Origin: an uncultured Thermococci archaeon | Lineage (GTDB): Archaea > Methanobacteriota_B > Thermococci > Methanofastidiosales > Methanofastidiosaceae | NCBI GenBank assembly: GCA_964500005.1 | Contig: CAZCMP010000005.1 | Span: 77,075-141,074, forward strand | Direction of reading: 5' to 3' | DNA: 64,000 nucleotides | In this document: in pieces, positions 2 through 62,270 of the stretch | How the letters are laid out: each line of letters starts with the position of its first letter | Position numbering within the stretch: position 1 is the first letter of the stretch | Made by a program: the position numbers and the translations under genes | Notes under the pieces: model-generated | Seen by the model: only the letters and a program-made list of their open reading frames with translations | Told to the model about the DNA's origin: nothing | Database searches by the model: none

Positions 2-931
2 GGAGTTTATTATATTTCTAAAATACCGGAGCCAGGAATGTTATTGAAAGCAGAAAGTAATATCCTAAAACTTTTTTCTCAGCCTCTAAGAGATGCAAAT
101 TATAGGAATCTAATAAAATTTTTAGGATCATGGAATTTTGCAGTTAATTTGGCCGCACCTTTCTTTACCGTATATATGTTAAAGAGATTAGACCTGAATA
201 TGTCTATTATTATAATATTTATGGTACTAGGACAGTTGATGACATTTATCTTTCTACATTTTTGGGGGGAAATATCCGATAAATTTAGTAATAAATCTGT
301 ATTGCAATTTTGTGGGCCTCTTTTTATTCTAAGTATACTCGGTTGGACTTTTACAACATTACCGGAAAAATACTTCCTAACAATTCCATTATTGGTAATA
401 GTTCATGCAACTATGGGGGTATCTGCAGCTGGAGTTTCCTTAGCTTCTGGAAATATCACTTTGAAATTAGTACCAGAAGGTAATTCCACTGCATATCTTG
501 CACTTTCAAGCATAATAAATTCTATAACTGCGGCCATAGCCCCAATAATTGGTGGTTTATTTGCCGATTTCTTTGAAAAGAGAGAATTGGCATTAACTCT
601 TGAATGGATATCCCCTGAAAACACACTATTATTTGAAACGTTTAATCTAAAATCTTGGGATTTCTTTTTTTTCTTAGCTTTTTTAATTGGGCTGTATTCA
701 TTACACAGCTTAGCAGTTGTAAAAGAAGGTGAAGAAACAGGCAAAAAAATTATTTTTAATGAATTATTTTTAGAAGCGAGACATGGCATTAGAGGATTTT
801 CCAATATAGGAGGGGGATTAAGATATATGATTCAATTCCCATTTTCAACATTATTACTAGTTAGAAATAACGATTTTATAAAAAGAAGACTCGTGAAAAG
901 AATTAGATTAAAAAAAATCTATAGGTATTAA
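2..931 (+). CDS. MFS-type transporter, C-terminal part (5' end truncated by window edge)
   Basis: The frame is open to the window start. The product is multi-TM and hydrophobic with MFS-like loop motifs. The first in-frame ATG is at 38. Confidence 0.55.
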   Translation, partial: GVYYISKIPEPGMLLKAESNILKLFSQPLRDANYRNLIKFLGSWNFAVNLAAPFFTVYMLKRLDLNMSIIIIFMVLGQLMTFIFLHFWGEISDKFSNKSVLQFCGPLFILSILGWTFTTLPEKYFLTIPLLVIVHATMGVSAAGVSLASGNITLKLVPEGNSTAYLALSSIINSITAAIAPIIGGLFADFFEKRELALTLEWISPENTLLFETFNLKSWDFFFFLAFLIGLYSLHSLAVVKEGEETGKKIIFNELFLEARHGIRGFSNIGGGLRYMIQFPFSTLLLVRNNDFIKRRLVKRIRLKKIYRY

Positions 932-3772: not shown

Positions 3773-4798
3773 ATGAAAGCAATAATACTGGCAGGAGGGT
3801 ATGCAACAAGACTTTGGCCAATTACAAGAGAAAGGTCAAAGGTCTTCCTTCCTATAGGAAAAAAAACTATATTAGATTTTGTCTATGAAAAAGTAAAAAA
3901 GTTGAATATTCCTATTATCGTTTCAACAAACGAATTTTTTGAAGAAGATTTCATAGAATGGGCAAAAGATAAGGACGTGAAATTGGCAATAGAAAAGACA
4001 ATCAAGGAAGAAGAGAAACTAGGCGCCGTCAGAGCCTTAGCCCAGTTGGCCAAAGATATAGACGATGAACTTTTTATTATAGCAGGGGATAATTTATTCA
4101 CCTTTGAACTAACAGACTTCTTAGGATACTACAACGATGTCAATGCACCGGTGACAGCTTTGTATGACGTTAAAAGCATGGATCTTGCAAAAAGATACGG
4201 CATTGCAGAGTTAGAAGGCGATAGGATAATAAGATTTCATGAAAAATCTGAAACCCCACCTACTACGATGGCAGGCATAGCTATGTATATATTGCCTAAG
4301 GATTCGGTCAAAATTCTATTAAACTATGTAAAGGAAAATAAAAAAGTAGATAATCTAGGAGATTTTGTAAGTTTTTTATCGGAGAAAACTAATGTTTTTG
4401 GCTATTCTTTTTCAGAAGGCTCATGGCACGATATTGGATCTCCGGATTCTTACATAGACTCACTTAAAACATATATGGAAACATATATCGGAGATTGTGA
4501 AACATCTTATAGTTGCAAGTATAGTTGTAAAATTATCGAGCCAGTCGTAATAGAGGATAAATCAGTAATTAAAGGAAAATCAGTTATAGGCCCTTACACA
4601 TATATAGGAAAAGGATGCGAAATAGATGAATCAAGTATTACTAATTCAGTTATATTTGACAACACTAGTATAACAAAATCATTTTTAGACAAGAGCCTCG
4701 TTGACTCAAAATGCAAATTATTTGGGATAAAGATAAGTAATTCAGCAATCGGCGCTTACTCCAAAATTAATAAAATATTAAAAATTTGTAGTTTTTGA
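3773..4798 (+). CDS. sugar-1-phosphate nucleotidyltransferase (NDP-glucose pyrophosphorylase) with C-terminal left-handed beta-helix domain
   Basis: The N-terminus MKAIILAGGYATRLWPIT is the G-x-G-T-R nucleotidyltransferase signature. The C-terminal third has hexapeptide-like repeats. The likely start is the ATG at 3773, not the 3752 in the track. Confidence 0.75.
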   Translation: MKAIILAGGYATRLWPITRERSKVFLPIGKKTILDFVYEKVKKLNIPIIVSTNEFFEEDFIEWAKDKDVKLAIEKTIKEEEKLGAVRALAQLAKDIDDELFIIAGDNLFTFELTDFLGYYNDVNAPVTALYDVKSMDLAKRYGIAELEGDRIIRFHEKSETPPTTMAGIAMYILPKDSVKILLNYVKENKKVDNLGDFVSFLSEKTNVFGYSFSEGSWHDIGSPDSYIDSLKTYMETYIGDCETSYSCKYSCKIIEPVVIEDKSVIKGKSVIGPYTYIGKGCEIDESSITNSVIFDNTSITKSFLDKSLVDSKCKLFGIKISNSAIGAYSKINKILKICSF

Positions 4799-6508
4799 AT
4801 AGTATTCTATTGCTTTATTCATATAATCTTTTTCAAGTATCCCTGGTAAAGTAGAAGTTTCGAATATTCTATTGGGTAATCTAAGGGATTTTATGTCAAA
4901 TCCCATCTTTTTCTTAATCTTAACTTTTTCAAGATATATTCTCTCTCCGATATCGATAATTTCATCTTTACTAAATTCCATCCCTAGCGGTTTAAAAGCT
5001 TCAACTACTATTTCTGGGGTATAGACATTTCTAGCGAAAAAACATATGACTAAACTTGAGAGAACTTGTCTCCACTTCTCTTCTTCTAAAAGTTCATCGA
5101 TTAACTCTTTGTAACCTATTTCTTTCTTCTTTTGATCAATCGAATACCCAGCATTATCAAGATGACTATGACGTAAACCTATTAGGGTACCTAGATGACA
5201 CCCATAGCCTGTGTGGTACCCAGGCATTTCATTGTTACCAAAAGCCATTGCATAGTCCTTCCCCCCATAAACATCTGAGGCCTTTTCAACGCCTTCAGCG
5301 AGATTTTTGTAAAATTCAGTGGGTTGTTTAACTAAATATTCTATGCCTTTTTCATATTTTTTGTAGTCGCTAAAATCAAAATCTAGAAGTGTATCCTTAT
5401 TAGTAATTAGGCCTTTTTGTAAAGCTTCTGTAGCCCAAGCCAAACAAACTCCGGTGCTTATTGCATCTATGGCATATGCTTCAGCTTTATGGATTAGTTT
5501 TAATAAACCTTTAGCAGATAATATCCCTAACATAGAACCCAAAGAATATATCAATTCGTAATCATAAGATATCATCAAAGTTTTAAAGAAGTAATCTGCA
5601 TTCTCATAAGGCTCTCTTAAAGATGCTATATGTATACATGCTGTGGGACAGTGATTACAGGCAACACGCCTACCGAGATACATTTCCCCTATAGTCTCAC
5701 CACTTATATTCTTCCCATATTCAAACTTTGTAGATTGGAGATTCTTTGTGGGTAGTCCACCAATTTCATTTAATGTCATAATATTAACAGATGTTCCTAT
5801 AAGGTGGTATTTTTTCATAGCATCAGATTCTGTGGCTATTTTGAATATTTTATTATAAATTTCTCTGAAACTCTTGGCATCTTCGGGCATTTTGCTACTC
5901 CGGCCTCTAACCATAACTGCCTTGAGATTCTTTGATCCAAAAACAGCACCCAGACCCAATCTTCCAAAATGTCTGTAAGTCTCAGTAGTAACTGAAGCAT
6001 ATCTAACTAGTTTTTCACCGGCACCTCCAATTGCCATGACAGTTCTCATACCTTTTCCTTCTTCTCTTTCGGCTATTATTCTACCAGTAATCCTAGAATC
6101 TTCAATACCCCAAATAACCCTGGCATCTCTAAAGAATACTTTTCCGTCTTCAATTACAAGATAAACTGGATTTTTGCTAACGCCTTTTATAACAATTGCA
6201 CCATATCCTGCATATGCTATACTTGTTGCAGTTCTTCCCCCAGCGTGGCTTTCTCCCCACTCACCTGTAAGAGGGCTTTTGAAAAGAGCTACCGTCTTAG
6301 TAGCTAAAGGATAAGCGGGAGTAAAAGGTCCAATACTAAAGATAATTACATTATCTTTACTTAGTGGATCTACGGATGGATTTAACTCCTCTTTCAGTAG
6401 TTGTGTACCTAAGCCTACACCGCCAATCCATTCTTTAAATAAATCTTCTCTCTCTTCTATAGTATAACTATTATTTGATAAATCAATAATTAGGACTCTA
6501 TTATTCAA
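4778..6508 (-). CDS. aor: aldehyde:ferredoxin oxidoreductase family tungstoenzyme
   Basis: The N-terminus aligns to the AFOR_N domain. It has the 4Fe-4S ligands CNHCPTAC and a conserved AOR C-domain. It starts at a TTG that overlaps the upstream ferredoxin stop in the sequence TTGA. Confidence 0.8.
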   Translation of the reverse strand: MNNRVLIIDLSNNSYTIEEREDLFKEWIGGVGLGTQLLKEELNPSVDPLSKDNVIIFSIGPFTPAYPLATKTVALFKSPLTGEWGESHAGGRTATSIAYAGYGAIVIKGVSKNPVYLVIEDGKVFFRDARVIWGIEDSRITGRIIAEREEGKGMRTVMAIGGAGEKLVRYASVTTETYRHFGRLGLGAVFGSKNLKAVMVRGRSSKMPEDAKSFREIYNKIFKIATESDAMKKYHLIGTSVNIMTLNEIGGLPTKNLQSTKFEYGKNISGETIGEMYLGRRVACNHCPTACIHIASLREPYENADYFFKTLMISYDYELIYSLGSMLGILSAKGLLKLIHKAEAYAIDAISTGVCLAWATEALQKGLITNKDTLLDFDFSDYKKYEKGIEYLVKQPTEFYKNLAEGVEKASDVYGGKDYAMAFGNNEMPGYHTGYGCHLGTLIGLRHSHLDNAGYSIDQKKKEIGYKELIDELLEEEKWRQVLSSLVICFFARNVYTPEIVVEAFKPLGMEFSKDEIIDIGERIYLEKVKIKKKMGFDIKSLRLPNRIFETSTLPGILEKDYMNKAIEYYSKTTNF

Positions 6509-6861
6509 TCGTTCACCTCCACAAAAGCAAGAACATCATGAGGACAGAATTGAACGCAATACCCACAGTGAATACAAACTGCAGGCTTACCATTTTCCCT
6601 TTCAAATATAGCCCCTATTGAGCATGCTTTCATACAGTTTTGGCAAGCTATACATTTATCTTCAATAAACATCACTCCGCCACCTTTCCGTGGAACTAAC
6701 GCACCAGTAGGGCATACTTCAACGCAGGGTGGCTCTTTACAGGCTCTACAAAATATAATTGTCGCCCCCATCTCAAATCCACTTAGGCTTACTGCTAAGA
6801 TTCCGGACGAGTTTATCCCTATCTCAGGTTTTTTGGGATTTTTTCTAGCACATGCAAACAT
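6505..6861 (-). CDS. 4Fe-4S poly-ferredoxin, putative AOR electron-transfer subunit (N-terminus probably extends to 6927)
   Basis: It carries three cluster motifs: CxxCx4Cx3CP, CxxCxxCx3C and CxxCxxCx3CP. A fourth motif, CVGCSLCMFAC, lies in frame upstream of the annotated ATG (see findings). Confidence 0.7.
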   Translation of the reverse strand: MFACARKNPKKPEIGINSSGILAVSLSGFEMGATIIFCRACKEPPCVEVCPTGALVPRKGGGVMFIEDKCIACQNCMKACSIGAIFERENGKPAVCIHCGYCVQFCPHDVLAFVEVND

Positions 6862-6927
6862 GCATAGGCTGCATCCAACACATTTTTCTATATCTTTAAT
6901 TTGTAGTTGTTTTAATTTACCAACTCC

Positions 6928-8247
6928 TTATAATTCATTTTCTAATATTCTTCTAGTTTCAATTTTGTATTCCTCAACGTTTGGTTGATTAAATGGATTT
7001 ATTCCTAATAAATACCCCAAAAGCATTGTTTCAATCATCATAAATTGTAAAAACTGGCCTATAGAATATTCCGATTTATCAAGCATATGAATCTCTGTAA
7101 AAGGTCTTTTTCGGGCTCTGTAAGCTTTTATAACTCCTTTGTATATAGCCCTCATTATTGTCTGTAATCTTTTTCCAGATATCTCTTTAACTAATTCAGA
7201 GTATTCTCCATTTTCAGACACCTTAACAATATTCTTATTTTTCTTTATTTTGACAAAAGTTGTGAATTTGTCGGCGGGTCCACCCAGATACAACTGTGCC
7301 ATTGAATGAAGGTCAGTTGAGCCTATAGAGATCGTGGGAGTTATGCCTACATTTACGCGCTCTTTTTTTAAATTATACTCTTTTCCTATACTCTCTCCTA
7401 TCAACTGTTTGTACCATTTCCCTAAAGATTCTAAGTCTGGACTAAATATGAATAAATTATGAATATTTTTTCCTCTTTTGTAATGGATGTACTTAAGCGA
7501 AGCACTAATTACTGCAGGATTATCCTTTACTTCAGTATTCAAACATTTCTTGATGATTTCTTTTGCTCCTTTCAATAATTCGGTAATATCAATTTCTATT
7601 AATCCTAGGGGAAATAAGCCTACAGCCGATAAAATAGAATATCTTCCGACTACCTTTTTTGGAATAGGCAGGGTATCAAATCTTTCTTTTTGAGCCAAAT
7701 TCCAAAATTTTGAACCTTCATCTGATGTTACAATTATATACTCTCTGTAGTCTTTTTTGTATTTCTTCAATAATTCAACTAAAATCTCAAAATTTGCAAT
7801 AGTTTCTGTAGTGCTTCCAGATTTACTTATTCCATTAAGTATTATATTTCCTCCATTCTTTAAAACTGGTTCAATTATTTCTATTATATTATTAATCAGG
7901 TCAGAATCAACAGTATCTGCATAAAGTATTTTTGTATTTGGATTTAATTCGTTGTATAATCTCCCATATATGGCTTCTTGAACAGCAATCGTTCCTAGAT
8001 TACTTCCACCAATACCTATTACCACTATATATGAAGGATTCAATTTCTTTTTTTCATTTATTAATTTTTTGATATTTTCGACATATTCTAAATCGTATGG
8101 AAGATTAATAACTGATTCATGCACTTCATAATGTTTTTCCTCTATGTCTGTTAACTTTTCTATTTTTTCTGTTAATTTCTTAGCTACAGCCATCAAATCT
8201 AAATCTAATACCATGCTATCTTTAAAATCAAATTTTAATTCATTCAT
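6928..8247 (-). CDS. pgi: glucose-6-phosphate isomerase
   Basis: PGI family motifs are present: GIGGSNLG, GRYSILSAVG and the sugar-isomerase domain. Confidence 0.85.
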   Translation of the reverse strand: MNELKFDFKDSMVLDLDLMAVAKKLTEKIEKLTDIEEKHYEVHESVINLPYDLEYVENIKKLINEKKKLNPSYIVVIGIGGSNLGTIAVQEAIYGRLYNELNPNTKILYADTVDSDLINNIIEIIEPVLKNGGNIILNGISKSGSTTETIANFEILVELLKKYKKDYREYIIVTSDEGSKFWNLAQKERFDTLPIPKKVVGRYSILSAVGLFPLGLIEIDITELLKGAKEIIKKCLNTEVKDNPAVISASLKYIHYKRGKNIHNLFIFSPDLESLGKWYKQLIGESIGKEYNLKKERVNVGITPTISIGSTDLHSMAQLYLGGPADKFTTFVKIKKNKNIVKVSENGEYSELVKEISGKRLQTIMRAIYKGVIKAYRARKRPFTEIHMLDKSEYSIGQFLQFMMIETMLLGYLLGINPFNQPNVEEYKIETRRILENEL

Positions 8248-8255
8248 TTTAACAC

Positions 8256-9224
8256 TTATTTTATTTTAATAATTTTATGAGGATATTCACTGATTTTAGA
8301 ATTGATCTCCTCTATATCCAAAAATTTATTTTTTGCACCCAAGTATTGAATTACAGATTCGGCTTCAGTTGCCCCATATTCTAAGGCAATTTTGATATTT
8401 TTAGATTTCATGAAACCTGTAAGAAATCCTGCACCAAAACTATCTCCCGCCCCAGTAGTTTCTTTTACATTTACCTCGTTTGGTATAATCATATGTCCTT
8501 CTTTGTTTGTAAATGTATAAGCTCCATGATCGCCATCAGTTATTATTGCTATTTCTGGCCCATAACTAAGTAAATTATCTGCCATAAGTCTTGGATCAGT
8601 ATGGCCAGTAATCATTTTGGCTTCTTCAAAATTTACGCAAACTATATTAGAATTGTTAAGTATTTTTTCAAACTTTTCTATTCCTTTTCTTATTAAATAA
8701 GAACTAGGATTATACATTATCCCAATATTATTTTCATTTGCATATTTTGATATTTTTATCTGGGTGTCTAGTGAATCTTCAAGCATTGTACAAAGATAAA
8801 ACCATTTGGTGTTTAATCTTGATAAGTTAATTTCATTAAATCTAAGTTTATCATTTTTATCTTTTAAGGTAAGGATTGTCCTGTCCCTTCCTTTCGCATC
8901 CAGAATTACAGAATAATCTGAGAGGCCTTCTTCTTGTATCAATAAAGATGTATCACATTGAATAGAGTTTAGATATTTCAATATTTTATCTGCATTGTGA
9001 TCATCGCCTATTTTTCCCAATAATGCAACTTTCAATCCAAATGTTGCAAATGCTCCAGCAGTATTTGTTCCGCCACCTCCAATTTCAAAATTCATTGATT
9101 TAACAAGGATCTTGCTCCCATATGGTACGGATAATTGTCCATCTTTAGTTATTCTAAATAGATCTTTTCCTGTGTCTACAAATAGATCTATAGTACAACT
9201 ACCCATGGTAATAACGTCATACAT
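8256..9224 (-). CDS. PfkB-family carbohydrate kinase, probable ATP-dependent 6-phosphofructokinase
   Basis: It has the GG dipeptide, GGGGTN and the C-terminal TGAGDSFGAGF anion hole. It sits between fba and pgi. A GGTGA SD precedes the ATG. Confidence 0.7.
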   Translation of the reverse strand: MYDVITMGSCTIDLFVDTGKDLFRITKDGQLSVPYGSKILVKSMNFEIGGGGTNTAGAFATFGLKVALLGKIGDDHNADKILKYLNSIQCDTSLLIQEEGLSDYSVILDAKGRDRTILTLKDKNDKLRFNEINLSRLNTKWFYLCTMLEDSLDTQIKISKYANENNIGIMYNPSSYLIRKGIEKFEKILNNSNIVCVNFEEAKMITGHTDPRLMADNLLSYGPEIAIITDGDHGAYTFTNKEGHMIIPNEVNVKETTGAGDSFGAGFLTGFMKSKNIKIALEYGATEAESVIQYLGAKNKFLDIEEINSKISEYPHKIIKIK

Positions 9225-9228
9225 TTTT

Positions 9229-10119
9229 TCACCTTGGGTATTCTTTCATGATGTCTCTAATTTTCTCATTGATTTTCCAGGAATCTTCTCTACTTCTTTG
9301 CCAAATATTTCTTCCAAAAATTATTCCAGTGGCGCCAGCTTCCATGGAAAGTTTAACTTTATTTAAAAGATCTTCATCTCCTAGTTTTGATCCTCCAGAT
9401 ACGAGAACCATCGTATTGCCTGCAGACTTTACTACTTTTTTAATAGCTTCTTCTGGAGACAAATCTAGTTGATTATATGGTTCCGGATACAAATCCATTT
9501 TCGAATTGTCGATAATAGGAAAATTAATCTTTATAATATCTGCGCCCAATTCACACCCTACACGCGCAGCATAGTCTACAGCGTATAGAGATTCTTTTCC
9601 TCCCTTTGCTTCAATGGCCTTTCCTCTTGGATAAGACCAAACTATTATTGGCAGCCCATATCTATCTGCTTCTCTTTTTACTTTTCTAAATTGTTCAATA
9701 TCTTCCTTTTGATTGGGAGTCCCAACATATAAAGTATATCCAACGGCATCTGCACCTAGTCTAATAGCATCTTCTAAACTAGCGGTCAATGGAGAAACTG
9801 GAGCATCGTCTTCTGGTATTGAAGTTTTTCCGTTTAATTTTAAAACTAGAGGTATGATGCCCGCATATTTTTTCATATATTTTTCTGCAAGTCCAATATG
9901 CATTACAATGCCTGATACTCCAAGACTTATAGCCAGATTTAGAACGTATTCAGGATCCAGACTTCCGGGATTTGAAAAGAAGTCTCGTGGCCCATGTTCT
10001 AAACCATGATCAATGGGCAATAGATTCAATGTTCCATTTCTTAATCCATGGCTGTATAATAATCTATACAATCTAACTCTTTTTCCTAAAGCTAGGTCCA
10101 AATTACTTAAAATATCCAT
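9229..10119 (-). CDS. fba: class I fructose-bisphosphate aldolase (archaeal DhnA/FbaB type)
   Basis: Motifs LPIDHGLEHGP and GADAVGYTLYVG...IIKINFP match the archaeal class IA aldolase. The track start at 10140 is TTG. The ATG at 10119 follows GGAGGT. Confidence 0.8.
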   Translation of the reverse strand: MDILSNLDLALGKRVRLYRLLYSHGLRNGTLNLLPIDHGLEHGPRDFFSNPGSLDPEYVLNLAISLGVSGIVMHIGLAEKYMKKYAGIIPLVLKLNGKTSIPEDDAPVSPLTASLEDAIRLGADAVGYTLYVGTPNQKEDIEQFRKVKREADRYGLPIIVWSYPRGKAIEAKGGKESLYAVDYAARVGCELGADIIKINFPIIDNSKMDLYPEPYNQLDLSPEEAIKKVVKSAGNTMVLVSGGSKLGDEDLLNKVKLSMEAGATGIIFGRNIWQRSREDSWKINEKIRDIMKEYPR

Positions 10120-10248
10120 ATTTTTTACCTCCATTATCAAAAATATAACAAAAATAGCGTCTAAACTATCATTGAGATAAAAATATGAATCTATTGCCCA
10201 AACTACTCAATAATTTTTCTTTTTATCTAATATAACTCTTTCGGTAAA

Positions 10249-32885: not shown

Positions 32886-33788
32886 TCATCCTTTCAGACA
32901 GTTCTTCAAGGCGACAATAAATGTTTTTGGATCCTCAAACATGGGCAAATGCCCTACGCCTGGTATAACTTCCAATTGACTATTTGGGATTCTTTCCTTT
33001 AAGTAATAACCCTTAGAAAGCGGTACCCACGTATCCTCCTCACCCCATATCATAAATGTAGGTACATCTATTTCTTCTATAGGCTTTTGCAATACATTTT
33101 TATAGCGTGTTGAGGTGATTTTAATTAAAACATACTCCCAGCCTTTAAAGATCGTTGGATTTACAAAAAGCGGTTCTTTAATCTCCACTTTTTTGTACAT
33201 TGCACTAGTAAACGTTTCTGAAATCCTAGACTCATTATAAAATAATTTCATGATAATCCTCACATATTCTCTAACAATTGGCCAATCTAAAATTTTAGTA
33301 GCTTTGATATTCAAAGAATCATCATCCGCTTTATCCATAATTGAACCGGAAACTAAGACTAGCCTTTCAACTTTTTGTGGGTATTTCTGGCAATACATCG
33401 TTGCTATGTTGCCCCCCATACTGTGACCTACAAGTGTAAATTTATTTAACTCTAGTTTATTGACAAAAGAGTTTACAAATTCTGTTTGAGATGGGTGTGA
33501 ATAATCTTCATCCCTCTTTTTTTCTGAAAGGCCAAATCCTTTTAGATCAACAGCAACTACCCTGTACCCCTCTTCAGCGAGCGCGGGTATTACAGGTATC
33601 CAATTTGTAGATGACCCACCAAACCCATGTAACAAAAGAATAGTTTTCTCAGATTCTGGATTTACATCAATGTAAAAAGTTTTGTAATTATTTATTTCTA
33701 TAAAATTAGCCCCTTTTATTTCAAAATTAGAGATATAATCTTCTGGAGTAATGCCGGTGTCTCTTACAAAAATAGGAGAAAGGATCAA
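32886..33788 (-). CDS. alpha/beta-fold hydrolase
   Basis: HGFGGS and GHSMGG define the nucleophile elbow. The C-terminus has a His. Confidence 0.75.
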   Translation of the reverse strand: MILSPIFVRDTGITPEDYISNFEIKGANFIEINNYKTFYIDVNPESEKTILLLHGFGGSSTNWIPVIPALAEEGYRVVAVDLKGFGLSEKKRDEDYSHPSQTEFVNSFVNKLELNKFTLVGHSMGGNIATMYCQKYPQKVERLVLVSGSIMDKADDDSLNIKATKILDWPIVREYVRIIMKLFYNESRISETFTSAMYKKVEIKEPLFVNPTIFKGWEYVLIKITSTRYKNVLQKPIEEIDVPTFMIWGEEDTWVPLSKGYYLKERIPNSQLEVIPGVGHLPMFEDPKTFIVALKNCLKG

Positions 33789-33883
33789 AATAATTAGAAA
33801 CGTACAAATAGTATATTTTACTATCTTCTTAGATGAAGTTTTCTCTTTAATAAAATCACCTTCTATTGATTAAGAATATTAAT

Positions 33884-37530: not shown

Positions 37531-37667
37531 ATAATAAATATTGAATATATATCTATTTAAGTTTATCGAAACACTAGATGTGACATCACTAATTTGAATT
37601 AGATTTATAAATAAAAGTAATATTTTATATGTAAGGCCTTAGTGGCCAAACAAAGGGAGTAGTTAAA

Positions 37668-38006
37668 ATGTATGGTGAAAGAAGAGGGGCACGTGATAGG
37701 CCTCCTCGTGAAATGCATAAAGTGGTTTGTCAAGAATGCGGACAAGAAACTGAAGTCCCATTCGAGCCAGATGGTACAAGACCTGTTTACTGCAAAGAAT
37801 GCTTCCAGAAAAAGAATCCAAGAAGAGGGGAAGGTAGGCCCCATCGTGGCGGAAGAATGGGTGGGCGTGATAGGCCTCCCCGTGAAATGCATAAGACAGT
37901 TTGTCAAGAATGCGGACAAGAAACTGAAGTCCCATTCGAGCCAGATGGTACAAAACCTGTTTATTGCAAAGAATGCTTCCAGAAAAAGAAACCAAGAAGA
38001 TTCTAA
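37668..38006 (+). CDS. tandemly duplicated C4 zinc-ribbon protein with Arg/Gly-rich linkers
   Basis: It has two copies of RDRPPREMHK.VCQECGQETEVPFEPDGT.PVYCKECFQKK. A GGAG-like SD is upstream. The three overlapping ORFs in this interval are rejected as repeat artefacts. Confidence 0.6.
   Translation: MYGERRGARDRPPREMHKVVCQECGQETEVPFEPDGTRPVYCKECFQKKNPRRGEGRPHRGGRMGGRDRPPREMHKTVCQECGQETEVPFEPDGTKPVYCKECFQKKKPRRF
37692..38003. repeat. 174-bp tandem direct repeat (1.8 copies) inside the zinc-ribbon gene
   Basis: Copies 37692-37865 and 37866-38003 are more than 95% identical at the nucleotide level. Confidence 0.8.
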
Positions 38007-38102
38007 AAGTATTTTTTGGAAAGATTACTTTCTGAATAGAAATGTACTTTTATTTTTTATATTTAATTCTTTAATCATAATTAAAAATAGATAAAATTAA
38101 GT

Positions 38103-61449: not shown

Positions 61450-61493
61450 TTTATTTAAAAGCGTAGTGATATTTAATTAAAAAGTCAGTAATC

Positions 61494-62270
61494 GTGGATA
61501 TTATGACAGATGAATCTCACAAGAAGATAATTAAAGAAGAATTCGCTAAACAGTCTTCAACTTTAGAATCCTCCAACATCTTCACGGATGCTGAGATAAC
61601 AGAAAAAATAAAAAACGCTTTAGAGTTAGAAAATCAAATGACTGTTCTTGACCTAGGATGCGGCCCGGGTATTTTAACTTCGTGTATTGCGCCTTTTTCT
61701 AAGATGGTAATAGGTTTTGACATAACCCCAGAGATGACTATTAAGGCAAAAGTAAGATGCAGTACTAGCAAAAATGCAGTTTTCTTGATAGGCGATGCTG
61801 AATGCCTTCCCTTTAACGATAATTCACTTGATAGAATAGTGACTAGACTAACTTTTCATCATTTTATAAATGTTGAAAAGGTATTGTCAGAAATGCACAG
61901 GATATTAAAAGTTGGTGGAAAGGCGATTATTGTAGATATAATCTCCTCAGAAAAAAAGAGTGAAGCCGAAATACATAATGCCCTTGAGAAAATACGGGAT
62001 CCTTCCCATGTTAAGATGTTGCCAAAGAGTGAATTATTATCCCTTACTAAAAATTCAGGATTTACTATAATCTCACAAGATGCATGGGTAAAACAAAGGT
62101 ATTTTGATGAATGGATAAATATAACTTCGCAGAATGAAAACGCTTATTCTTTGGGCATAATAATGAAAGTTCTTGCAATTTCAGGAATCAATGCAGGAAT
62201 AGATTTAGACGTCAAAAAATCAATGATTAAGTTTAATCATAATTGGGTTATGATTACAGGTATAAAGTAA
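61494..62270 (+). CDS. class I SAM-dependent methyltransferase
   Basis: It has VLDLGCGPGILT and LKVGGKAIIVD. Confidence 0.75.
   Translation: MDIMTDESHKKIIKEEFAKQSSTLESSNIFTDAEITEKIKNALELENQMTVLDLGCGPGILTSCIAPFSKMVIGFDITPEMTIKAKVRCSTSKNAVFLIGDAECLPFNDNSLDRIVTRLTFHHFINVEKVLSEMHRILKVGGKAIIVDIISSEKKSEAEIHNALEKIRDPSHVKMLPKSELLSLTKNSGFTIISQDAWVKQRYFDEWINITSQNENAYSLGIIMKVLAISGINAGIDLDVKKSMIKFNHNWVMITGIK

Follow-up and report, generated by a model that had tools for sequence, protein, structure and literature searches.

Where does translation begin when a conserved N-terminal motif lies partly upstream of the only canonical start codon in its reading frame? This question is raised by a ferredoxin-like gene on the minus strand of contig CAZCMP010000005.1 from an uncultured archaeon of the Methanofastidiosaceae, which was analyzed within a stretch of 64,000 nucleotides (hereafter the window, to which all coordinates refer). 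The gene lies between pgi and a gene for an AOR-family catalytic subunit, and the 22 in-frame codons separating the pgi stop from its ATG at 6861 (6927..6862) contain no ATG, GTG or TTG. The missing canonical start is a real feature of the locus. Initiation is, in our estimate, very likely non-canonical and located upstream of the cysteine motif, while the codon TTA at 6915..6913, replaced by TTC in relatives, has about an even chance of being the start codon. The features that define the junction are:

6928..8247, minus strand: pgi (glucose-6-phosphate isomerase), 439 residues, stop TAA at 6930..6928, from the open reading frame (ORF) list and a Pfam PGI match
6919..6927, minus strand: Shine-Dalgarno (SD)-like element GGAGTTGGT, directly 3' of the pgi stop and matching 7 of the 9 positions of GGAGGTGAT
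6862..6912, minus strand: 17 codons encoding KQLQIKDIEKCVGCSLC, 5' of the annotated ATG and including the first three cysteines of cluster motif 1
6850..6882, minus strand: first CxxCxxCxxxC motif, whole (TGT 6882..6880, TGC 6873..6871, TGC 6864..6862, TGT 6852..6850)
6859..6861, minus strand: only in-frame ATG and gene-caller start, corresponding to the internal Met of C-x2-C-M-[FY]-A-C

The upstream cysteine motif and the identity of the protein

The TAA of pgi is followed immediately by the SD-like sequence AAGGAGTTGGT. The 22 codons (GGA GTT GGT AAA TTA AAA CAA CTA CAA ATT AAA GAT ATA GAA AAA TGT GTT GGA TGC AGC CTA TGC) translate to GVGKLKQLQIKDIEKCVGCSLC, which, with MFAC appended, supplies a complete CxxCxxCxxxC motif, IKDIEKCVGCSLC(MFAC). 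The annotated ATG falls within this motif, which spans both sides of it, and the public and ORF-finder call from this codon (P0001) is a protein of 118 residues. At the other end of the gene, the ferredoxin stop and the TTG start of the AOR gene overlap as TTGA (6508..6505). An earlier note on this DNA had described the codons devoid of ATG, GTG and TTG, the SD-like sequence after the pgi stop and the TTGA overlap, and all three are confirmed in the sequence.

The homologues retrieved are 114-179 residues long. The upstream-extended protein contains 16 cysteines (C12/15/18/22, C56/59/64/68, C88/91/94/98 and C114/117/120/124), which are invariant in an alignment of 51 homologues; the full count of four motifs and 16 cysteines is obtained only when the 22-codon upstream stretch is included. 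M19, the methionine of the annotated ATG, is an internal residue that is nearly invariant among the full-length homologues. Further, in 112 motif-bearing homologues the first cysteine is preceded by 10-32 residues, most commonly 11 (45 homologues), then 10 (24) and 12 (22), and in none by fewer than 10. The invariance of the four cysteines in the 51 homologues, together with the presence of the motif at least 10 residues after Met1 in all 112, indicates that the upstream motif is not a chance occurrence. The comparison with orthologs that the earlier note had proposed as a check comes out in favor of the upstream cysteines.

In phmmer searches the extended ferredoxin aligns end to end with solved subunits, namely 9mqx_E (2e-15), 8c0z_C (AorA; 2e-8) and 6x1o_B (WOR5-S; 5e-7), with query residues 5-133 placed onto residues 5-133 of the 9mqx_E chain. 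The AlphaFold2 model of the 136-residue version has a mean predicted local distance difference test score (pLDDT) of 90.8; at its N-terminus, residues 2-6 (KQLQI) form a β-strand, and the mean pLDDT over the first ten residues is 90. The top PDB matches of this model in Foldseek are 9mqx_G/E, 8c0z_C and 6x6u_B/6x1o_B, with query template-modeling scores of 0.78-0.83. The best PDB sequence matches of the AOR partner are 1aor_A (E 7e-64) and 9mqx_D (E 1e-62), and the arrangement of an adjoining AOR gene whose TTG start overlaps with the stop of the ferredoxin is conserved at six related loci. By its motifs, homology, modeled structure and gene context, the ferredoxin, with a proposed length of 136 residues, belongs to the four-cluster small subunits of tungsten AOR-type enzymes; both cluster binding and complex formation are predicted for it. 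The suggestion that the upstream cysteines complete an AOR-type polyferredoxin as its fourth cluster motif is borne out by the homology, the 16 invariant cysteines and the fold of the model. The corresponding features are:

6505..6915, minus strand: proposed full coding sequence of the ferredoxin-like small subunit, 136 residues, stop TGA at 6507..6505, four cysteine motifs and 16 cysteines
6513..6520, minus strand: canonical SD of the AOR gene, GGAGGTGA, 12 nucleotides 5' of its TTG start
4778..6508, minus strand: AOR-family catalytic subunit, 576 residues, Pfam AFOR_N and AFOR_C, TTG start

Conservation of the junction and translation of the upstream stretch

One explanation, already entertained in the earlier note, is that a sequencing or assembly error erased a canonical start. 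The source of the window is a metagenome-assembled genome, and one substitution, TTA to TTG, would be enough to recreate a start. However, five further assemblies (ERZ724100, ERZ724101, SRR6007446, SRR6007447 and SRR32971144), belonging to three or more run or assembly series, carry the 121-nucleotide junction with 100% identity, and four other sequence types likewise lack a start, leaving such an error with a negligible probability.

These other types belong to a comparative set of six species-level sequence types, i.e., the window and the loci designated here L008, L033, L032, L025 and L018, assembled via exact-protein look-ups of the neighboring 90% cluster, one member of which is NPV51225.1 from Candidatus Methanofastidiosum sp. 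The five other types have the same aldolase-PfkB-pgi-ferredoxin-AOR operon, and nucleotide divergence among the lineages is 15-22%. Three types are present in more than one assembly, and each is identical throughout its assemblies (5, 6 and 8, the last being the L025 type). Beyond this set, a ferredoxin scan of the genome collection recovered distant relatives only, at 53% identity or below, and no close relatives were recovered from metagenomes in two scans, for a DNA pattern and for the protein P0125. The junctions read as follows:

Window, in the ferredoxin frame: TAA GGA GTT GGT AAA TTA AAA CAA
L008 and L033: TAA TAT GGA GTT GAT AAA TTC AAA CAA
L032: TGA TAT GGG GTT GAT AAA TTC
L025: AGG GGG ATT GAT AGA TTC
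L018: ATG ATA TGG GGT GGT AAA TTA

Between the pgi stop and the cysteine motif, no in-frame ATG, GTG or TTG occurs in the window, L008, L033 or L032. In L025 the only canonical start is a TTG located 20 codons 5', within pgi and devoid of an SD, and a usable canonical start is missing in five of the six types. L018 has a 1-nucleotide deletion in the SD region (GGGGTTGAT to GGGGTGGT), through which an ATG that overlaps with the stop of pgi (ATGA) comes to lie in the ferredoxin frame, with the register between the SD and TTA left intact. This lineage (P0125) is seen on 12 contigs, and its ATG may represent a secondary rescue of a canonical start. All six junctions contain an SD, in the form of GGAGTTGAT, GGGGTTGAT, GGATTGAT or GGGGTGGT, and the codon orthologous to TTA 6915 is TTA in L018 and TTC in L008, L033, L032 and L025.

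The pattern of codon variation bears directly on whether the upstream codons are translated. Of the 17 codons that extend from AAA 6912..6910 up to the ATG, 6 are invariant among the six types, 10 show synonymous changes only and 1 shows a nonsynonymous change (Q/E). Of the variable sites in these codons, 11 of 12 are synonymous, while random changes would give an expectation of 19% (binomial P = 1.1e-7), and the three upstream cysteine codons alternate between TGC and TGT. By contrast, nonsynonymous variation is seen in each of the four codons directly 5' of this block (GTT/GGT/ATT, GGT/GAT, AAA/AGA and TTA/TTC; Fisher P = 0.004 relative to the downstream block). Judging from these alignments, the upstream motif must be translated and under purifying selection, and the switch from nonsynonymous to synonymous variation suggests that the 5' limit of coding constraint lies at or beside the TTA/TTC codon.

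These observations weigh on the annotation as it stands, in which only the 118-residue protein would be made from ATG 6861, as a three-cluster ferredoxin preceded by a relic motif. This ATG is the sole canonical start and the one selected by gene callers (P0001). However, the excess of synonymous variation among the 17 upstream codons, with cysteine codons kept through TGC/TGT switches, rules out a relic motif; moreover, no SD precedes ATG 6861, and three ligands of one cluster would be lost from a family in which all 16 cysteines are invariant. ATG 6861 is hence unlikely to be the real start, and a truncated product as the only one made from the gene is very improbable.

The motif could alternatively be translated as part of a pgi-ferredoxin fusion, either by readthrough of the TAA, as the earlier note had considered, or by programmed frameshifting, which could also set out from an out-of-frame TTG or ATT in the SD or spacer. 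In the window, L008, L033 and L032, only one stop codon interrupts the frame that the two genes share, and the spacer keeps an out-of-frame TTG (GTG in L018) as well as an out-of-frame ATT. However, pgi is in another frame in L018 and L025, such that the genes are in frame in just four of the six lineages, and the stop, which is TAA or TGA, is displaced by one codon in L008 relative to the window. No slippery heptamer of the X XXY YYZ form is present, the out-of-frame ORFs extend for 3-13 codons with unconserved peptides, and a counterpart joining an isomerase to a polyferredoxin is absent among the retrieved homologues. The out-of-frame TTG abuts GGAG at zero spacing and is better taken as belonging to an extended SD (GGAGtTGAT vs GGAGGTGAT). 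On account of the variable frame, the moving stop, the lack of a heptamer and this explanation of the TTG, a fusion or programmed shift is not supported, and we regard it as less probable still than the truncated product.

Position of the initiation codon

Since no NTG codon stands ahead of the translated motif, initiation would have to be non-canonical, in agreement with what the earlier note had proposed. Its candidates were ATT and ATA, and the codon defined by the SD, TTA 6915..6913, was not among them. The codons to be weighed are:

6913..6915, minus strand: TTA, putative non-canonical initiation codon at the SD-defined P-site position
6898..6900, minus strand: ATT, near-cognate rival start, a conserved Ile codon (ATT; ATC in L025)
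6889..6891, minus strand: ATA, near-cognate rival start, a conserved Ile codon (ATA; ATT in L025)

The spacing of the SD was calibrated on SD-led starts in the window, defined as canonical starts with at least 5 contiguous SD bases, with the spacing taken as the distance between the start codon and the first G of the SD. Among the 17 starts flagged in this way, one of them a fortuitous match within the ferredoxin gene itself, the spacing is 12 nucleotides in 9, 13 in 6 and 14 in 2. The distance from the first G of GGAGTTGGT to TTA 6915..6913 is 12 nucleotides, the modal spacing of the window, and the same 12-nucleotide register with TTC or TTA is kept in the other five types, L018 included. 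The AOR gene likewise has a spacing of 12 nucleotides between its SD and start (GGAGGTGAacgaTTG), with its SD conserved as GGAGG[TC]GA at all six loci, and a model mRNA of Pyrococcus abyssi, GGAGGUGAUUUAA-AUG, has 13 (PMC6237735). Additionally, TTA aligns to Met1 of the solved homologues 9mqx_E and 6cz7_B, and a start at this codon would place 11 residues ahead of the first cysteine, the mode of the family, while retaining the predicted N-terminal β-strand. TTA is hence favored as the start by the SD spacing, the alignment to Met1, the length of the N-terminus, the retained β-strand and the boundary in codon variation.

Initiation at the near-cognate ATT or ATA would instead yield (M)KDIEKC or (M)EKC, respectively. 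AUU, AUA and AUC are the best-documented non-NTG starts, both positions are ATH in all six variants, and a hydrolase gene elsewhere in the window probably uses ATT (see below). In E. coli, AUU, AUA and AUC starts were measured by fluorescence at 1-2% of AUG (10.1101/063800), and a value of 0.3% is cited for an ATT start (PMC10666635). However, the first base of the SD lies 27 and 36 nucleotides upstream of these codons, as opposed to the 12-14 nucleotides of the SD-led genes, and only 6 or 3 residues would remain ahead of the first cysteine, fewer than in any of the 112 homologues, with loss of the predicted β-strand at residues 2-6. Synonymous changes 5' of the ATT (CAA/CAG and CTA/TTA) also suggest that this segment is translated, albeit weakly given one further Q/E change, and the conservation of ATH at both positions is simply explained by conserved isoleucines. 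The preference of the earlier note for ATT or ATA is hence disfavored on spacing, N-terminal length and the lost strand; these codons remain the most credible of the alternatives, though unlikely.

A further alternative couples the start to termination of pgi, with the terminating ribosome held by the SD and restarting at a weak codon other than TTA, such as GTT 6924..6922 or AAA. The pgi stop lies within 0-6 nucleotides of the SD in all lineages, the ATG of L018 overlaps the pgi stop (ATGA), and L025 carries an ATTGA overlap of the pgi TGA in the ferredoxin frame. Archaeal termination-reinitiation is known from genes that overlap or are separated by very short gaps, and ATTGA and ATTAA overlaps have been noted as possible (PMC10666635). 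Nevertheless, the codon after the stop varies among the types (GTT, GTT, GTT, GTT, ATT and GGT), GTT is not near-cognate, and the extra codons that would become coding (G/D, K/R and L/F) all vary nonsynonymously. Such a restart also leaves unexplained the 12-nucleotide SD register with TTA or TTC in the six variants. In the window itself, the gap from the pgi stop to the TTA is 12 nucleotides and contains no canonical restart codon. Re-initiation of this kind is unlikely as well, and ranks behind the near-cognate starts.

If the TTA is the start, a mechanism along the following lines can be proposed. The original NTG start of the ferredoxin gene would have decayed, while the conserved SD (6927..6919) would continue to set the small ribosomal subunit with the TTA in the P site, where the initiator tRNA would read TTA, or TTC in the sister lineages, despite the mispairing. 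Termination of pgi 12 nucleotides upstream may aid this by local delivery of ribosomes. Output would be expected to lie below the level of an ATG start. The downstream AOR gene has a perfect SD to itself, and its TTG start overlaps with the TGA of the ferredoxin. A further route, in which A-to-I editing would turn TTA into TTG, was considered and is ruled out by the TTC found in four lineages.

Several points weigh against initiation at TTA. UUA and UUC differ from AUG at two positions, such that the central U-A pair alone remains. We know of no archaeal example of a start of the UUA/UUC type. The factor aIF1 discriminates against non-canonical codons (PMC6237735), and codons that are not near-cognate initiate in E. 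coli at 0.01-1% of AUG (10.1101/063800). By analogy with the latter data, an efficiency of at most 1% of AUG would be expected, which is awkward for a subunit presumably needed 1:1 with AOR. Further, in all six variants an out-of-frame ATT lies one base 5' of the TTA or TTC, at a distance of 11 nucleotides from the G that opens the SD. This codon would be expected to form the better pairing with the initiator tRNA and might act as a competitor. The boundary in codon variation rests on few sites, with just 3 variable codons between TTA and ATT. Finally, the SD consensus within GGAGGTGAT was derived from gene starts in the window and not from the 3' end of the host 16S rRNA; Rfam and tRNA scans of the window gave no match, and no rRNA lies within it.

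The same out-of-frame ATT opens an ORF of 6-9 codons (6898-6916 in the window), whose stop overlaps the in-frame ATT as ATTAA in five types and ATTGA in L025. Translation via this short upstream ORF and its ATTAA/ATTGA overlap was also considered, but is unparsimonious and would result in an N-terminus that is far too short; its peptides are not conserved, and the overlap is judged coincidental.

Further candidate starts, operon context and known systems

A second gene of the window displays a comparable arrangement. The α/β hydrolase at 32886..33869 (minus strand) has an SD, GAAGGTGAT (33855-33863), followed by TTT and an ATT at 33851..33849, with a spacing of 12 nucleotides, and then encodes KEKTSSKK and a membrane helix. 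No canonical start occurs before the called TTG (33788), which would cut the N-terminal transmembrane helix, and this helix is present in all homologues inspected. On these grounds the hydrolase probably starts at the ATT. In an 87% identical relative (L059, 331-350), the codon defined by the SD is GTA and the TTG is replaced by CTG, and a 77% identical relative occurs in Ca. Methanofastidiosum methylothiophilum. Together with NPV51225.1, the latter relative suggests that the window derives from a Methanofastidiosum-like archaeon.

Among the short calls of the ferredoxin family (114-123 residues), P0043, P0115 and P0117 were examined, whereas P0112, P0118 and P0120 were left out. The distant orthologue P0117 (L057:440-490, 54% identity) has no in-frame ATG, GTG or TTG before the first cysteine motif, and a CTG preceded by GGTGAT and ATAAA occupies the position defined by the SD; it probably represents a CTG start that has been miscalled at the internal Met. 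In the other two cases, P0043 (L006:325-327, 118 residues) and P0115 (L058, ~1450-1500, 114 residues), the apparent lack of a start reflects miscalls at the conserved internal Met, and canonical starts lie upstream: an ATG in L006 and a TTG with an AGGTGA SD in L058. A scan of the window for SD elements with non-canonical starts returned the ferredoxin, the hydrolase and otherwise weak or explained matches. Among the latter, the ORF at 2..931 runs off the window edge and a plausible ATG lies within the methyltransferase gene at 61470..62270; both were rejected. The scan also returned an ACA match at 37581.

The SD-defined P-site codons seen in the ferredoxin and the hydrolase are TTA, TTC, ATT and GTA, all of the form NUN, in a genome of ~33% GC. 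This pattern, a lead drawn from two genes, would fit AT-biased erosion of the third bases of NTG starts, tolerated via a strong SD. We tentatively suggest, at somewhat less than an even chance, that in Methanofastidiosum-type archaea a strong SD at 12-13 nucleotides may suffice for NUN starts that are not near-cognate to AUG (UUA/UUC in the ferredoxin and AUU/GUA in the membrane-anchored hydrolase). Start stringency would then be relaxed throughout the lineage, perhaps in adaptation to AT-biased erosion of NTG starts; alternatively, such starts could serve to set subunit dosage, as an archaeal, aIF1-dependent counterpart of the IF3-controlled GTC start of sigR.

The operon that houses the ferredoxin is a conserved one of glycolytic type (4778-10140, minus strand), encoding a class I aldolase, a PfkB-family kinase, pgi and, at its end, the ferredoxin and AOR, and is also found in L018, L024-L026 and L032. 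The pgi product matches the NCBIfam glucose-6-phosphate isomerase models with E 4e-78, under the curated cut-off. The AOR is not recovered as an archaeal GAPOR orthologue, with an NCBIfam score of 34 bits against a cut-off of 1300, and it could play a GAPOR-analogous, aldehyde-oxidizing role tied to sugar breakdown. In the more distant relative L009, the ferredoxin-AOR pair follows ABC-transporter genes (periplasmic binding protein, permease and ATPase). Elsewhere in the window, two 154-nucleotide direct repeats (37673-38000, plus strand; 90% identical, 174-nucleotide spacing) lie in the ORF 37672..38094, which points to an internal duplication in its 140-residue protein.

The automated calls for these lineages (NCBI, ENA and Logan) cut off the cluster motif and report proteins of 118 or 123 residues. 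Gene callers rely on the assumption that archaea use AUG, GUG and UUG, which are also the only archaeal start codons given in a review (PMC7531240). The annotation should become that of a 136-residue four-cluster subunit, and metabolic reconstructions of Methanofastidiosia should regard the AOR, encoded within a glycolytic operon, as a polyferredoxin-linked enzyme of two subunits. If TTA and TTC do initiate, they would constitute the first archaeal start codon that is not near-cognate and is kept across species, and the locus would offer a concrete substrate for probing how aIF1 and aIF2 enforce start-codon fidelity.

In terms of the protein, the closest solved systems are the small subunits of AOR complexes, i.e., chains E/G of the electron-bifurcating W-AOR (9MQX), AorA of the AorABC complex of Aromatoleum aromaticum (8C0Z chain C) and WOR5-S of Pyrococcus furiosus (6X1O/6X6U chain B), which resemble the window ferredoxin in their 16 cysteines, length and fold. 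The AOR small-subunit systems also share with it a gene that adjoins and overlaps an AOR-family catalytic gene just 3'. However, identity to 9MQX, AorA and WOR5-S is ~30% only, and the window gene is the one that lacks a canonical start. The window ferredoxin-AOR pair differs from those complexes, further, in being placed inside a glycolytic operon, to which the search for a third (FAD/NAD) subunit gene was confined.

In terms of initiation, known non-canonical starts include the AUU of infC and other near-cognate starts, namely AUU, AUA, AUC and CUG. The infC-type starts are similar to the presumed start of the ferredoxin in being conserved non-NTG starts where dosage may matter. The hydrolase (ATT) and the L057 ferredoxin orthologue (CTG) look like ordinary members of this near-cognate class, whereas TTA and TTC are not near-cognates of AUG. 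With respect to archaeal termination-reinitiation (Huber et al. 2019/2023, PMC10666635), the TTGA between the ferredoxin and AOR in the window is a classic 4-nucleotide overlap, and the junction between pgi and the ferredoxin in L018 reads ATGA; in contrast to such systems, the pgi stop and the presumed start in the window are 12 nucleotides apart.

By analogy, ferredoxin initiation most closely resembles that of Streptomyces sigR, which has a GTC start (GTT in 2 of 34 species) and an extended ribosome-binding site, AGGAGGTG, with SigR output lowered under the control of IF3 (Feeney et al. 2017, PMC5472188). In both cases the SD defines an NTN codon whose non-G third base varies between species (GTC/GTT vs TTA/TTC), the SD is unusually extended and there is a translational link to neighboring genes. 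The two differ in that the first base of the codon is G in sigR and U in the window ferredoxin, and in that sigR is a bacterial, IF3-controlled gene whose start was shown by mutagenesis and Western blots, while the ferredoxin belongs to an archaeal aIF1/aIF2 setting and is argued for on comparative evidence alone. The ferredoxin start would hence set itself apart from the known non-canonical starts in being archaeal, in using UUA or UUC, which are not near-cognate, and in having been kept through several speciation events.

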